Shown: positions 1,819 through 44,300 of the stretch, piece by piece
How the letters are laid out: each line of letters starts with the position of its first letter
Numbering within the stretch: position 1 is the first letter of the stretch
Virus record (IMG/VR): IMGVR_UViG_3300010356_002264
Reading direction: 5' to 3' (one strand)
Length of the DNA: 64,000 bases
Origin: a virus
Lineage: Duplodnaviria > Caudoviricetes
Made by a program: the position numbers and the translations under genes
The notes under the pieces: generated by a model
Databases searched by the model: none
What the model was told of the DNA's origin: nothing
Seen by the model: the letters and a program-made list of their open reading frames with translations, nothing else

Positions 1819-1820
1819 TT

Positions 1821-1856
1821 CAGCTCCGTCCTGCCCTCTTGCGGGTAGACGCTGGT
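1821..1856 (+). promoter_or_regulatory. promoter with both CAGCTC (1821-1826) and GGGTA (1843-1847); predicted +1 at G1857
   Basis: Same geometry as the element in front of ATG 15222; both motifs independently predict +1 at 1857. Confidence 0.7.
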
Positions 1857-2185
1857 GGGTCGGGTTCGCGGCGTGGCAACATGACACGCGGCCCTCACAG
1901 TACCTGAGGGAACGGGCGAACAGGACGAGGCAGCGTCCAGGATAGGCAGGGAGACGGCACCGACGTACACGCGGAGCAACAGGGAAGCCGTATCGGGAGT
2001 CCGTCGAGGGTGGTGAATAGCCACCCGGGTGGCGCACCTGAATCGACAGGAAGAGCGGGGCTGGAATCGACCAGTGATGCGGGTTGGGCAGGACCCTGGG
2101 AGCCCAACCGAATAAGGAAAGCCGCTCACAAAACGTACGGCCACCACGAGCCAAGCCGGGGCAGGACCGGCCGAACCCGACCCAC
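1857..2185 (+). ncRNA. putative novel structured ncRNA (~330 nt), GGA-rich, upstream of rtcB
   Basis: Perfect 14-bp pairing 1855-1868/2172-2185 closes about 10 mutually compatible helices; 13 GGA motifs; no credible ORF; bounded by two promoter motifs. Confidence 0.75.
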
Positions 2186-2186
2186 T

Positions 2187-2222
2187 CAGCTCCAAAATTC
2201 GGCACCCTTTCGACCATCTCCA
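2187..2222 (+). promoter_or_regulatory. CAGCTC-N18-CGAC promoter for rtcB; predicted +1 at 2223, leader GAAAGGGA
   Basis: CAGCTC 2187-2192, CGAC 2211-2214, then an SD-like AAAGGGA and ATG 2237. Confidence 0.7.
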
Positions 2223-2236
2223 GAAAGGGATCCATC

Positions 2237-3652
2237 ATGTCGTTCAAGTACCAGGTCGAGCAGGTCGGCCCGAGCAAGTTCGTTCTCCCGCGCGTAGGGA
2301 CCATGCGGTGCGATGTCACGGCGTTCCTGTCGCCCGAGCTCTACGCGGCCTCCGAGGAGGACATGTGGGCGGACGCGGCGAAGTCTGCGTCTACGCCGGG
2401 CGCGATCGGGATGTACCTCCAGCCCGACTGCCACAAGGGGTACGTCCTCCCCGTGGGAGGGGTGCTCGTGACCGACGGTGTGGTGGCGCAGGCGGGCAGC
2501 GGGTACGACATCTCCTGCGGCGTCGTGTACCTCCGGGTACCGAACCTGCACGCGCGGGACGTCGCCGACTGGGCGCTCCGCGAGCGCTGGGTGCGGGCGG
2601 TCTCGGACCGCGTGGCGCTTGGCTACGACAAGGGAGGGAACCGACCGCGCCTCATGCGGTCGCCCTCGGATCGCAAGGTCAGCGAGGTCCTGCGCTACGG
2701 GGCGAAGGCGGTCGGAGGAAACCTCGACCTCTGCGAGCGCCCCTACATCCCCATCGACGACAACCTGTTCGACGAGAAGCTCATCCCCAAGGCGCTCTCG
2801 AAGGCGGCACCGCAGCTTGGGTCCGTCGGCGGGGGAAACCACTTCGTCGAGCTCCAGGTCGAGCGGTCGACCGGCGAGGTGTGGGTGATGGTTCACTGCG
2901 GGTCGCGCGGCTTCGGCTGGCAGGCGGCCGACTACTTCTTCGACCGTGGGGCGGAGCTAAACGACCTCCCGCGCGGGCGCAAGGAGGAGTCGTGCCTGCG
3001 GCTGGACTCGGAGCTTGGTCGCCTGTACTGGCAGTGGCATAACGCGGCGGCGAACTTCGCCGTCGCGAACCGTCACGTCATCGCGGCTGGCGTCGCGGAG
3101 GCGACCGAGGAGGTCCTCGGTGCGCGTCCCGAGCTCTTCTACGAGATCAGCCACAACCTGGTCCAGGAGGAGACCCTCGTGCTTCCTGACGGCACCACGA
3201 AGAAGGGGCTCGTCCACCGCAAGGGCTCGACCCGCGCGTTCCCGGCGGGGCACCCGGACCTGGTGGGGACCAAGTGGGCCAAGACCGGCCACCCGTGCCT
3301 CATCCCTGGGTCGATGCTGACCGGCGCGGCGATCCTGTGGCCGCAGGAGGGGGCGTACCAGTCGGGCTGCTCGGTGAACCACGGGTCGGGGCGCGTGATG
3401 GGCCGCAACGCGGCCAAGCGCGAGCTCGCGGCGCTGCACGACGACATCGACCACGAGATGCGGACGATCCGCCGCGAGGCGGGTGGCGCGGAGGTCGTGG
3501 GGATCGTCGGGAACTGCGAGCGGACCCCGCTCGACGAGTGTGGTCATGTTTATAAGGATTTGGACGTAGTGCTCAAGGTGCTGGAGGACAACGGCATCGC
3601 GCGCCTGGCACACCGTTTGTGGCCTGTGGCCAACTTGAAGGGAAGCGACTAG
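2237..3652 (+). CDS. rtcB: RNA-splicing/repair ligase RtcB (3'-phosphate or cyclic phosphate to 5'-OH)
   Basis: Motifs PDCHKGYVLPVGG, GYDISCG, QLGSVGGGNHFVE, VHCGSRGFG, SHN, HRKGSTRA, IPGSM, NHGSGR, DE...YKD. Confidence 0.97.
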   Translation: MSFKYQVEQVGPSKFVLPRVGTMRCDVTAFLSPELYAASEEDMWADAAKSASTPGAIGMYLQPDCHKGYVLPVGGVLVTDGVVAQAGSGYDISCGVVYLRVPNLHARDVADWALRERWVRAVSDRVALGYDKGGNRPRLMRSPSDRKVSEVLRYGAKAVGGNLDLCERPYIPIDDNLFDEKLIPKALSKAAPQLGSVGGGNHFVELQVERSTGEVWVMVHCGSRGFGWQAADYFFDRGAELNDLPRGRKEESCLRLDSELGRLYWQWHNAAANFAVANRHVIAAGVAEATEEVLGARPELFYEISHNLVQEETLVLPDGTTKKGLVHRKGSTRAFPAGHPDLVGTKWAKTGHPCLIPGSMLTGAAILWPQEGAYQSGCSVNHGSGRVMGRNAAKRELAALHDDIDHEMRTIRREAGGAEVVGIVGNCERTPLDECGHVYKDLDVVLKVLEDNGIARLAHRLWPVANLKGSD

Positions 3653-4725
3653 CGGTGCTCGCACTCGCCCCGGACGCAGTTCGGGGTGTAGTGCTGGGTC
3701 CAGTGGTCGGGGGAGGTCACCCCGAGGACGCGGCACTTGAGGACGGCGCGCGGGAAGTCGGTGAGGCGGAACGGGCCGAGGGGGCGCACCACGTACCCCT
3801 CGGACGGGTCCTGGCTCCCGGACCGCCGTGCCCCGCGCAGTGCCGCCTGGGTCGTGAGGCCCCGCAGGATGGCCTCGTCGAACGGTCCCCGGTATAGCTC
3901 GGGGATGGGCTGTAGGCCGAGCAGCCGCGCGTAGAGCGCGGTCTCGTCCCACCCGAGCGCCTGGTCTCGGTCCCAGACGGAGAAGACGAAGAAGCGGTCC
4001 GGCGTCCCGTCGTCGGCGCACAGGTCGTGGTACTCGACCGAGTGGAGGGCGTCGACGTTCTCCCCGCACACGCGGAACTCCGGTGGGATGTCGCGCCACA
4101 GGGAGGCGTGGCGCGCGCGCATGCGGGACCGGCTCGGATGACGCGCGTACCCGTCGATCGACCGCGCGTGCAGGTAGTCCGCCTCGGGGCCGAGGGTGGT
4201 GTTCTCGCCGTCGAGCTTCTCCAGCACGACCACCTCCCGCGCCCGGAGCCAGTCGAGGTCCTGCGGACGCACGAACCGGTCGTCGGCGTCCGCGCACGGC
4301 GACCACGGCAGGTGCAGGGTTCGGGGAGGCTTCACCCGCGAGGTGAACTCGTGCCACACGGGCTGGAGGATGCGTCGCACGCTGTCCTCGAAGCCGAGCG
4401 GGCCCAGCGCTCGGCGGCCGTTCGGTAGGTAGGGGTTGCCCCACTTGTCGATGACGGCCTCCGCGTGAAGGTAGTCGGGCACACGCACCGTCTGGATGCG
4501 TGCGGCCTCGCGCACCTGCTCGACCGTCACCTCGGTGCGCTCGCAGCGGAGGTGACAGGGCCCGCACACGGTCGCTCCGTTGTCGAGGTAGTACCCTCCG
4601 TCGGGCCACAGGCGACGGTCTAGGATGTGGTGGGCGTCCTGGCCGGGGTTCCCGCACAGGACGCACCGGCTGCGGTCGCGCGCGAACACCCTCTCGCGAA
4701 AAGCATCTCGGGTGAGGAGGGTCAT
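3649..4725 (-). CDS. HNH endonuclease-like domain fused to an ATP-dependent RNA ligase (Rnl2-like nucleotidyltransferase)
   Basis: N-terminal RD..RCVLC...DAHHI...DNGATVCGPCH; C-terminal PRTLHLPWS, motif I EKLDGEN, RVCGEN, FFVFSVW, EGYVV. Start fixed by CAGCTC 36 nt upstream. Confidence 0.88.
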   Translation of the reverse strand: MTLLTRDAFRERVFARDRSRCVLCGNPGQDAHHILDRRLWPDGGYYLDNGATVCGPCHLRCERTEVTVEQVREAARIQTVRVPDYLHAEAVIDKWGNPYLPNGRRALGPLGFEDSVRRILQPVWHEFTSRVKPPRTLHLPWSPCADADDRFVRPQDLDWLRAREVVVLEKLDGENTTLGPEADYLHARSIDGYARHPSRSRMRARHASLWRDIPPEFRVCGENVDALHSVEYHDLCADDGTPDRFFVFSVWDRDQALGWDETALYARLLGLQPIPELYRGPFDEAILRGLTTQAALRGARRSGSQDPSEGYVVRPLGPFRLTDFPRAVLKCRVLGVTSPDHWTQHYTPNCVRGECEHR

Positions 4726-41389: not shown

Positions 41390-44300
41390 CAGGTCCCCAC
41401 GTTGTTCCGGCGTCCCTGCCCGTCGGGTGCTGCGCCGAAGATGAGGGTCGCGCGGTTACCAGACACCATGCTCTTCTGGGGCGGCGTCGGGTCGGGGTCC
41501 CCGCCGCCGTCGGCGGCGATGTTGCGGGCGTGGTTTCCCACCACGATGAAGCTCGCGGGAGTGTCCCTGGGGAGCAGGATGTCCGCGCCGCGCGTGGCGT
41601 TCCCGACCAGGATGATGAGGTTGGACTTGGCCGTGAGGCCGCCCGAGACGACAGAGTTGCCCGTGAAGATGGACTGGTGAGCCGCGTTCGCGAGGATCGC
41701 TCCGGACGAGTTGCCCGTCATGACCGTCCCCACGTGCCCGTCCGCAAGTACGGACGCCAGGTGGTTACCCGCGATGATCGACCTTGAACCGGTCGCGGAG
41801 AGCTTGAGCTGCCCCTGCGCGCGGTTGCCCGACAGGACGAGTGTACCTCCGTCGACCGTAACGGTCCCGGCCACGTCCGACCCAGCCAGGATGCCAAAGG
41901 CACTCAAGAACTCTACGCTCCCGTGGCGGCCTCCCGTCACGACGCAGTCTGCATCTACCAGGAGCGGACCCGTCACGTTGGCCGAGACGACGGATCGAGG
42001 TGCGCGCACCGTCATCAAGGAGGCCCAGTTGCCGTTGACGAGGGCCTCCTCGGTCGTCCCCCCCACCACGACGCCGAGACCAATACCGAACAGGGCCCGG
42101 TTGTTCCTGACCATGGCCTGCTGGCCCGTCACGACGATCGAGAGGGCCGTGCCGGAGGTCGTCTCGAACGAGGTCAGGTGGTTCCCGTCCACCTCACACT
42201 GGTCTCCGTCGAGCCATATGCCCCCCTCGCCCGTGAACCGGTTGCCTCGCAGGATGTTTCCGACCCCGCGACCACCAGACCTCCTGACGAGGAGGTTCCC
42301 TTGGTGGTTGATGGTGCAAGACTCGACGAGGTTGTTCGACCCTTCAAGGGTGAGCCCCTTGATCAGAGTGCAGCCCCTGAAAGCCCCGTTGTCTCCGACC
42401 GCGCTCACGTTCTTGCGGAACAAGCAGCTGGCGAACTCCGGGAGGGTTCCGTCGCGTAGCAGCACGTCCGTGAAGTCGCAGTGGGAGAACCGGATGAGGA
42501 GTCCCGAGGTGATGAGGTCGAGGAATGCAGAATCGGACACGACACAGTTGTCCGTAACGAGGCTGACCCCACCAGGGACCTGCACGAAGCCCTTGATCAC
42601 GCAGCGGCTGGCCGCCTCCAGGGCGGAGGACCTGCTGTCCGTCAGCGTCGTCTCGAGCTCTAAGCGGATCACACCGCTCGCGATGATCCGGTCCCCGTAG
42701 TTCTGGCGCCCGAGCTGCACGTCGGCGTTCGTCGTGAAGTCGACGACCCGCGAGAGCGGGGAGTCCACGCGCAGGCCGGTGACTCCAGGCGCGACGGCGG
42801 CCACGTCAACACGACACCCGCTCACCACGGGCATCTCGCCATTACGCACGTGGAAGCCCGTGCGGGGGATGATCATCGGGTCGAAGGCGAGCTCGCGTCC
42901 CGTGCAGCGGTCGAACGTAACGCCAGCTCCTGCGGTTGTCCCGATGACGAACCCAGCCCCCCTTGACCCCAGGGCGGCACACTCGGAGAAGTTATCGCGC
43001 GTACCGTCGGTGTAGTAGCAGTGTAGGAACCCCGACACCGTGCAAGCTCGCACGACGTTACCCAGGCCAAGGTCGCCGGTGATTCCAAGCGAGATCCCGG
43101 CCTGACGAGGGATCGCCGTCTGGGCGGGAGCCTCCTGGCGGAACGTGCAGGCGTCGACGTTGCACCCGTTCGACCGGTCAATCATGACCCCGAAGTCGGT
43201 GACGCGGTTGGCCGCGCAGCGACGTATGGTTGAGTTCGTGAGGGTGACGGGAGGTCGAAGGAGAAGCATCCCGTGCGCGAGGTTGGCTCCCTCCATGTTG
43301 ATGCCGTCCAGGACAAGCCGGTCGATGAGGTTTCCTGGTCCCGAGTGGACGAAGGCCACCCGGTTAGGGTTGGGGTTGAGGCCCTGCCCTCGGTCCAGGT
43401 AGTGGATGCGCAGGTTGCGGAACTCACACCCGTTGCGCCCCTGGATGTCGAACAGCGCCTCGTCGGGGTGGTCCCAACTTACGCCGCTCAGGTCCGTCCG
43501 GTTGAAGTCCGCTGACACCACACCCTCGACAAGGATACCGTCGCAGGGCAGTCGAACAGGGACCAACGGTGCCCGCTCTTCCGTCAACCCCACCACGAGG
43601 ATCCGAACCTGGTAGCCGGACAACCCCGCCTCAGGGTTGACGAGCTCCCCCACGTACCCCATCGCCTCTGCCACCGTGGAGAAGTGCGGCTCGGGGATGC
43701 CGTACGGCATCAGGTCAGGCCGGCGGCCCACGATGACGTCGAGCCGGTAGTCCACCTCGCGCAGTGGGTACCGCAGGTCGAGCAGCTCCGTGATGCCGCC
43801 ACCAGCAGCGTGCACACGACCCACGAGGATGTCGTCGCGCCCAGGTAGGGGACGAGCTACTGGACTGACGCTGAGGCGTACGTCGCATGGGTCCGTCCCC
43901 ACGAGGTAGACGTACGAGGTCGCATTGTCGGGCACGATGGTCAGGCGACTGCGCACGGGCACGCGTCGACCCCCAATGAGCGCCCAACCGGGGTCGATCG
44001 TGACGACAAGGCCGCCGGCCGCAGTGGGTCGGCATCCCTGGAGGATGTTCGGGGCGAAGAGGTCGTGGAAGAGTGGTGCGGCCTCGTGCGTGCGCGTATC
44101 GACGGAGGTTGTCCCGTCACCGTGCCACGTGACCCGAGCGCCAGGAAATCGAATCCCTTGAGTGCGGGCCGCCCGGCCGTAGGCGAGGTCGTTTCGGTAG
44201 TCGACCTGCGGAACGCCGCCGCTCTTGGAGTAGTGGCGACGCAGGACCGCAGAGGCCGGAGCCATCGCGCTGATGGTCTTGGTGTCGCCCGCAACGCCAC

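Follow-up and report, generated by a model that had tools for sequence, protein, structure and literature searches.

The 64,000-nucleotide (nt) stretch of DNA analysed here (hereafter the window; IMG/VR record IMGVR_UViG_3300010356_002264) is taken from the minus strand of contig C242 (194,784 bp, 67% G+C), a phage-like contig in the 7.2-Mb metagenomic bin G000. Close to its start, the gap between an open reading frame (ORF) of 175 amino acids (aa) with no assigned family, ORF175 (1291-1818), and the plus-strand gene rtcB (2237..3652; 471 aa; Pfam RtcB, 3e-81) holds a plus-strand element at 1854..2186, which would fold into a structured RNA of 14 helices closed by a long terminal stem, P1, and which is preceded by a promoter-like site of its own. 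On the minus strand, tail to tail with rtcB, lies a gene for an HNH-RNA ligase (3649..4725; phrog_24030, 6.6e-87; Pfam RNA_ligase, 3.5e-23), in which an HNH domain (HNH phrogs cover residues 6-67) is fused to an Rnl-type RNA ligase. The analyses below indicate that 1854-2186 is very probably a functional stand-alone RNA gene, and the sequence comparisons make it well supported that this RNA belongs to an uncatalogued family, absent from Rfam 15.

The region 1801-2220 is non-coding on both strands, because the plot of G+C by codon position is flat across it, and both flanking genes have a strong signal at the third codon position; furthermore, every reading frame is broken by indels between the homologs described below. 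A first-pass annotation, made from the letters of the sequence alone, had proposed a stand-alone non-coding RNA enclosed by a perfect 14-bp stem, and this stem is borne out: 1855-1868 is the exact complement of 2172-2185, and a G1854-U2186 pair lengthens the duplex to 15 bp. The expectation that the stretch folds better than dinucleotide shuffles of itself also held: the minimum free energy of 1855-2185 (331 nt) is -146 kcal/mol as against -126.2 +/- 5.2 kcal/mol for 100 such shuffles (z -3.78; as-good shuffles 0/100), and the homologs L036 and L012 fold with z-scores of -4.17 and -2.48, respectively.

Homologs were found by means of protein searches with RtcB and ORF175 followed by look-ups of the contigs, and yielded five versions of the RNA: that of the window, L012, L018 (equal to L019), L036 (equal to L037, L038 and L039) and L040. 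The four further versions are 77-81% identical to the window by blastn, and the RtcB proteins of all the RNA-bearing phages fall into the same 90% cluster. The consensus structure obtained with RNAalifold from the five versions comprises 93 pairs in the 14 helices; 96.3% of its cells hold standard pairs as against 91.6 +/- 0.7% in shuffles, and 17 pairs are changed on both sides as against 7.0 +/- 1.9 in shuffles (0/500 with as many). A control in which the pairing partners were slid by 1-3 columns gave 0-3 double-change pairs. Thus, the homologs conserve base pairs rather than a reading frame, as the first-pass annotation had anticipated. The double changes are located in P3, P6, P7, P8, P9, P11, P12 and P13, and a pseudoknot screen over all column pairs found no covarying helices beyond the consensus.

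Within the closing stem (P1; 1854-1868/2172-2186), the RNA can be divided into a 5' hairpin block, a variable middle region and a 3' domain. The 5' block (1869..1938) comprises P2 (1869-75/1885-91) and P5 (1923-27/1934-38), both of which hardly vary, P3 (1892-97/1905-10), with one compensatory pair (C-G to U-A), and an invariant junction around 1911-1922. The middle region (1939..2027) opens with an invariant junction (1939-1952), followed by P6 (1953-68/1990-2005), whose tip is the variable P7, and by the variable hairpin P8 (2008-14/2021-27); P6, P7 and P8 show two double-change pairs each, and the tips of this region are swapped wholesale among relatives with the pairing still kept. In the 3' domain (2028..2145), which has invariant A-rich junctions, P9 (2028-33/2140-45; two compensatory pairs) encloses P10 (2037-40/2047-50; no covariation) and P11 (2053-58/2122-27; two compensatory pairs), and P11 in turn holds P12 (2060-64/2071-75; an invariant AAUCGA loop and two compensatory pairs) and P13 (2082-89/2102-09; four compensatory pairs). 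Finally, the hairpin P14 (2155..2171; 5 bp with the 7-nt loop GGCAGGA) adjoins the 3' strand of P1; it provides no covariation evidence because it is invariant in 5/5 versions.

The first-pass annotation had drawn P3, P5, P10, P11 and P13 with these same boundaries, P2, P8 and P12 in slightly shorter form (1871-75/1885-89, 2008-13/2021-26 and 2061-64/2071-74) and P14 as 2155-59/2167-71, and all of them are recovered in the five-homolog consensus. Its long-range helix 1987-1993/2135-2141 fared less well: it can form, but only in competition with P6 and P9, the latter being better supported by virtue of its two clean compensatory pairs. The window phage is also the only one with twin AAUCGA loops (2041-2046 and 2065-2070); in the relatives the first of these reads AACUGA or GACUGA, and the second, that of P12, is invariant over covarying stems.

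Across the alignment, variation clusters in the helices and hairpin tips, and the long single-stranded junctions are invariant. Such a combination of variable helices with invariant junctions and invariant P12 and P14 loops is the pattern expected when an RNA has a tertiary structure or binds partners. Large, intricate RNAs with invariant junctions are rare, and have repeatedly proved to be ribozymes, protein-RNA machines or self-assembling particles. The consensus pairs contain 22 G-U cells as against 9 A-C cells, which favours the plus strand, and the fold of the minus strand is 9 kcal/mol weaker. These observations bear on the view that the conserved unit is a DNA-level element (an origin, or a recombination or homing site), a chance fold in G+C-rich DNA or a sponge of the CsrA type. 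The variable character of the region with homing endonuclease genes nearby, the good fold of the minus strand as well (z -2.95) and the presence of several GGA motifs would all suit it. However, the excess of G-U over A-C cells, the greater stability of the plus strand, the invariance of the single-stranded junctions and the rightly placed promoter (see below) all speak for RNA; further, just a single conserved GGA is placed in a hairpin loop, and the bin, which need not be that of the host, yielded no CsrA gene. We therefore regard this as the least probable of the explanations considered. The non-coding character, strand bias and conserved structure instead agree with the originally proposed stand-alone RNA with a promoter-like site of its own.

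This site belongs to a promoter code that, judged by sequence statistics, is real: on C242, an ATG or GTG is found at exactly +36 for 60 of the 178 CAGCTC sites, as against about 4 at other offsets. A position weight matrix (PWM) built from 120 such sites reads T-CAGCTCC, a spacer, and then ATCGACTA. Copies of CAGCTC lie at 1821-1826, before the RNA, and at 2187-2192, before rtcB; the former scores 15.2, above 89% of the CAGCTC sites without a start codon, and the latter 18.8. The upstream element of the RNA gene, TCAGCTCC (1820..1827), is kept in 5/5 homologs, and is followed at +23..+28 from CAGCTC by a -10-like element, GGTAGA (1844..1849), which is likewise conserved in the homologs (as GGTATA in L012 and L036); the GGTAGA variant also occurs at the identical offset in some leaderless genes of C242. 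By the +36 rule, transcription is predicted to start at 1857 (+/-3 nt), that is, at the foot of the closing stem. The earlier claim that both promoter motifs of this genome point to G1857 thus stands for CAGCTC, but the second motif, TAnnnT, is not matched exactly. In L012 and L036, where three bases are added on the 5' side, the predicted +1 moves outwards by 3 nt to the opening G of the stem; an additional ACC on the 3' side pairs with the added bases. As for the other border, the RNA had been described as delimited at both ends: the rtcB promoter indeed begins at 2187, but the 3' end of the RNA is a predicted one, with no terminator behind it.

A further CAGCTC promoter is seen at C242:38930-39047 (PWM 20.5), with its predicted start 8 nt before a tRNA-Met gene (tRNA, transfer RNA). 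Its position indicates that the promoter class of leaderless mRNAs also drives RNA genes, and the CAGCTC code would accordingly serve both.

The arrangement of the two promoters also bears on the possibility that the element is a cis-acting 5' leader of the rtcB mRNA, riboswitch-like or a processing element. As such a leader would, the RNA in every case occupies the position immediately 5' of rtcB, in the same orientation, and no terminator separates the two. Nevertheless, the rtcB promoter and leader (2187..2236; CAGCTC at 2187-2192, CGAC at +24, predicted +1 at 2223), that is, a full, high-scoring promoter and a short 14-nt leader with a Shine-Dalgarno sequence, intervene between the two, and this promoter is the sole one in relatives that lack the RNA; moreover, no expression platform overlaps the ribosome-binding site. 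With a separate rtcB promoter behind the RNA and no terminator, we rejected the classification as a riboswitch or cis leader, and consider a cis-acting role decidedly unlikely.

The same relatives suggest how the RNA came to its place. In L014 the stop codon of ORF176 is followed by a single CAGCTC promoter and then by rtcB, with nothing between, and the promoter and leader are the same as those at 2187..2236. Since an RNA-less relative has just one promoter at this site, the promoter and RNA together form an inserted cassette. The ORF176-rtcB gap (1819-2236 in the window) is an insertion hot spot. In several relatives ORFs of 134, 146 and 110 aa are inserted before the RNA (in the same gap in L012, L018, L040 and L037); one lineage has a LAGLIDADG gene between rtcB and a gap of the size of the RNA, as judged from the length of the gap and not from its DNA sequence, and another has an HNH_3/NUMOD4 homing-endonuclease gene directly after rtcB. 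Neither ORF175 nor the ORFs inserted in the relatives belong to any Pfam, NCBIfam or PHROG family. A profile of ORF175 found no relative in the PDB; its AlphaFold model, with a mean confidence (pLDDT) of 45, was too poor for a structure search, and the Atlas provided no usable match.

Evidence for transcription is slight. Three runs labelled metatranscriptomic or RNA-Seq, which the run-search tool itself rates as probably DNA, contain contigs of 163-266 nt that lie inside the RNA and derive from relatives as well as from the window's own strain; both borders of the RNA are spanned by an 880-nt contig (1726-2605) in a DNA run. The short contigs are a weak hint of expression at most: contig depths, contig ends and uncovered flanks are unusable as evidence, and unitigs break at strain variants.

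Several observations weigh against the view that this is a functional RNA gene, or at least narrow its reach. P1, P2, P5, P10 and P14 show no covariation, and P1 has a single mismatch in L012 and another in L018; the covariation statistics are modest because the five versions (about four independent ones) are all close kin. No run on record as RNA contains the stretch, and no intrinsic terminator follows the element, whose 3' end is placed by prediction only. Beyond the close relatives, blastn with the element and with 8 kb around it recovered no RNA homologs in 50,697 phage records (cultured/GenBank), with 60 related genomes giving chance matches of 17-40 nt only; pattern scans of IMG/VR with IUPAC codes found no RNA homolog; and the 15 loci obtained by scanning JGI metagenomes and GTDB genomes match no more than the 19-26-nt seed. 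The RNA is missing from three IMG/VR jumbo-phage records with RtcB 62-67% identical to that of the window (L009-L011), and it is absent before rtcB in L013 (RtcB 82% identical), L054 (74%) and L044 (69%). We thus find it before rtcB only in a narrow clade with RtcB at least 90% identical, and even within this clade it is absent from L014-L017. Likewise, searches with nhmmer and with a model of the 3' domain 2028..2145 (model R1) detected no second copy in G000, in the three jumbo-phage records or in phage T5. Given the small number of independent sequences and their close kinship, we consider the evidence for the conserved structure good, yet short of conclusive.

The gene neighbourhood offers a possible lead on function. 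All the RNA-bearing loci share the order RNA, rtcB promoter, rtcB and opposite-strand HNH-RNA ligase, and the RNA adjoins the rtcB promoter in each of them, including those with additional ORFs on the upstream side. No RNA-bearing locus seen lacks the HNH-RNA ligase, whereas this gene is missing behind rtcB in L013 and L054, the two RNA-less loci with a visible downstream side. The functional tie to RtcB thus draws on two genomic features only, adjacency and co-occurrence with the HNH-RNA ligase, and there are counterpoints to both: the co-occurrence comes from kindred loci and may reflect nothing more than shared descent; some relatives have rtcB but not the RNA; and the ligase occurs without it in the jumbo phages SCTP-2, RsoM2USA, CcrBL9 and ME3. 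The neighbourhoods of the HNH-RNA ligase in CcrBL9 and RsoM2USA have no match to model R1, and a 502-nt gap in CcrBL9 folds no better than shuffles (z +0.78). The suggestion that the function of the RNA is tied to RtcB and the HNH-RNA ligase is hence a tentative one, which we hold to be possible but somewhat doubtful.

The explanation that we consider best as a whole, and to which we give about even chances, is a stand-alone RNA cassette acting in a phage RNA-repair module. In this scheme, transcription of the 'promoter + RNA' cassette would begin at the base of the closing stem and produce a discrete molecule of about 330 nt, with rtcB being transcribed from the separate promoter behind it. 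The RNA might then act in trans as a protein-binding scaffold or decoy in the module formed by RtcB and the HNH-RNA ligase, by analogy with the Y RNAs that accompany Ro60 and RtcB in bacterial operons. A bolder version, which we think rather improbable, would make the RNA, RtcB and the HNH-RNA ligase a three-part phage machine, in which the RNA serves as a guide or scaffold, or is itself cut and recircularised.

Ranking close behind the module with RtcB and the ligase is the alternative that this is an orphan 'ornate' phage RNA with a job unrelated to RtcB, for instance a self-assembling or host-protein-binding RNA like ROOL, GOLLD or the presumptive closed RNA of phage T5 described below, an alternative that we again view as possible though doubtful. 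The ORF176-rtcB gap takes up other ORFs and a LAGLIDADG gene in relatives, as might be expected of a mere landing site, rtcB lacks the RNA in six other lineages, and the RNA has its own promoter; in addition, the invariant junctions, and an invariant loop that includes the self-complementary UCGA, would be compatible with contacts of a tertiary or intermolecular kind. What favours the module over such an orphan is that the exact place against the rtcB promoter is kept in every version and that the RNA co-occurs with the HNH-RNA ligase, though the loci are kin in both comparisons. ROOL and GOLLD (RF03087, RF01998) themselves share with the window RNA a large multi-helix, phage-borne form, invariant junctions, transcription of their own (predicted for the window RNA) and a function yet to be found; however, the window RNA is about half their size, matches neither model, and lies away from the tRNA array, which is more than 60 kb distant on C242.

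Another proposal is that the RNA is a substrate of RtcB, being either cut at the foot of P1 and joined at its ends into a circle, or a nuclease decoy that is cut and re-sealed. This is prompted by P1, which brings the 5' and 3' ends together, and by the position of the RNA next to two RNA ligases. However, P1 has no bulge-helix-bulge motif, being a plain duplex, and no self-cleaving ribozyme family was matched even at E up to 10, on which grounds a self-cleaving ribozyme and a bulge-helix-bulge-flanked RNA were both rejected as classifications. RtcB is unable to join a 5' triphosphate end without prior processing, and the primary transcript would carry such an end, so that RtcB joining would need processing beforehand. 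Assembled contigs, which are poor evidence on circularity, contain no back-splice joint: the sole joint seen in them is the replaced variable region of a relative, and the 16 unattached letters preceding 1870 in one contig have no match in the phage. Taken together, we judge a role as a substrate of RtcB quite unlikely.

Comparison with catalogued families returned nothing, consistent with the failure of the first-pass annotation to match the RNA to a known one. Rfam 15 (4227 models) has no match at the gathering thresholds over the whole window, none at E up to 10 on 1700-2400, and none at E up to 1 on the homologs L012 and L036. We further compared the RNA individually with those families of which it could be a very divergent member, namely Y RNA/YrlA, transfer-messenger RNA (tmRNA), RNase P RNA and an RNA of phage T5 beside a phrog_1491/DIP1984-like gene.

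Y RNAs (YrlA/YrlB) are encoded in bacterial rsr-yrlBA-rtcBA operons (Chen et al. 2014, PMC4201824; Rfam RF02553). Like the window RNA, they are structured, non-coding and situated beside rtcB, with ends paired in a long stem; they are also found in phages, and are protein-binding partners in RNA repair and decay. Some strings of the window RNA resemble those of known families (AAGGAAAGCC), and the invariant junction GGCGAAC, followed by A, is one position off the YrlA motif GNCGAAN0-1G (PMC4201824). On the other hand, the window RNA is three times larger, has no match to the YrlA or Deinococcus Y RNA models and no detected tRNA-like domain, and its phage contigs carry no Ro60/TROVE gene, which is likewise missing from the related jumbo phages G061-G063. 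No gene for RtcA, DUF2828, DUF6847, phrog_1491 or CsrA was found in G000. Within the bin, a Ro60/TROVE gene is present only on contig C179 (16.8 kb), at C179:10705-14643 (L041), where it lies within an array of 12 tRNA genes and is preceded by sub-threshold matches to Deinococcus Y RNA and YrlA (two copies); this contig lacks the CAGCTC code, and the locus looks like a Ro60/Y RNA/tRNA module in its own right, which probably comes from a different phage or element.

Giant tRNA-rich phages often carry tmRNA, and C242 has 43 tRNA genes, at 39-57 kb. The window RNA resembles tmRNA in its size of about 330 nt, in the pairing of its ends and in having a hairpin that immediately precedes the 3' strand, here with a 5-bp stem and a 7-nt loop, as well as in an ACCA after the stem in 3/5 versions. 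However, the terminal stem of tmRNA has 7 bp as against 12-15 bp in the versions of this RNA; the third pair of the latter is G-C or U-A, without the G3-U70 pair; the loop GGCAGGA lacks the T-loop consensus; and there is no conserved tag frame, because indels shift the frames between homologs. ARAGORN detected neither a tRNA nor a tmRNA in the window, and no tmRNA on C242. RNase P RNA, which has a P4 pseudoknot formed by its conserved CR-I and CR-V strands in that order, gave no model match either; the string GGAAAGCC is here the 3' strand of a nested helix, P11.

In phage T5 (AY543070), the minus-strand gap at 43065-43504 (L050:3065-3504), behind a 212-aa phrog_1491 gene, folds with a z-score of -6.8. 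The presumptive RNA there is of similar size, with a long terminal stem, a hairpin abutting the 3' strand and a large phage as its home, but its interleaved 5' pseudoknot has no counterpart in the window RNA. Limited comparisons revealed no likeness: model R1, which covers the 3' domain, finds nothing in T5 and nothing beside two DUF6847 genes; ORF175 shows no resemblance to the T5 phrog_1491-type protein by hhalign (probability 0.1), and relatives do not share one and the same gene upstream of the RNA. With, in addition, no TROVE, DUF2828, DUF6847 or phrog_1491 gene on the phage contigs, membership in any of these families is highly improbable despite the resemblances noted.

The RNA is new to Rfam and compact, with a clean promoter and a defined set of genomic partners, RtcB and the HNH-RNA ligase, in a phage that also has 43 tRNA genes; it therefore offers a concrete starting point for learning how RNA is protected or manipulated by giant phages in the course of infection. 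Its weak point is the narrow distribution and the want of a cultured host. Should the three-part machine be real, it would constitute an RNA-centred repair or counter-defence device without a described counterpart; in its guide or scaffold version, the RNA would bring both ligases, along with the HNH nuclease domain, to RNAs that are damaged or specifically selected.

Beyond this locus, C242 encodes a DNA polymerase, a DnaB-type helicase and a SNF2 helicase in addition to the HNH-RNA ligase, as well as very large ORFs without families. Identical copies of its proteins are found on other contigs of up to 331,503 bp, and the sequencing runs that contain DNA of this phage are activated-sludge and wastewater metagenomes; the RNA carriers are giant activated-sludge phages of about 0.2-0.4 Mb, which make up a narrow clade. 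The code CAGCTC-N30-ATG is also common on two other contigs, C37 (155 kb, 34 sites) and C103 (61 kb, 29 sites), with at most 3 sites on any further contig. Its presence on C242, C37 and C103 indicates that the bin holds about 411 kb of this phage type, which represents a single fragmented genome or else two sister phages. The HNH-RNA ligase family extends to cultured jumbo phages, where it is mostly annotated as hypothetical; these include Salicola phage SCTP-2, Ralstonia phage RsoM2USA, the Caulobacter phage CcrBL9 group and Acinetobacter phage ME3.

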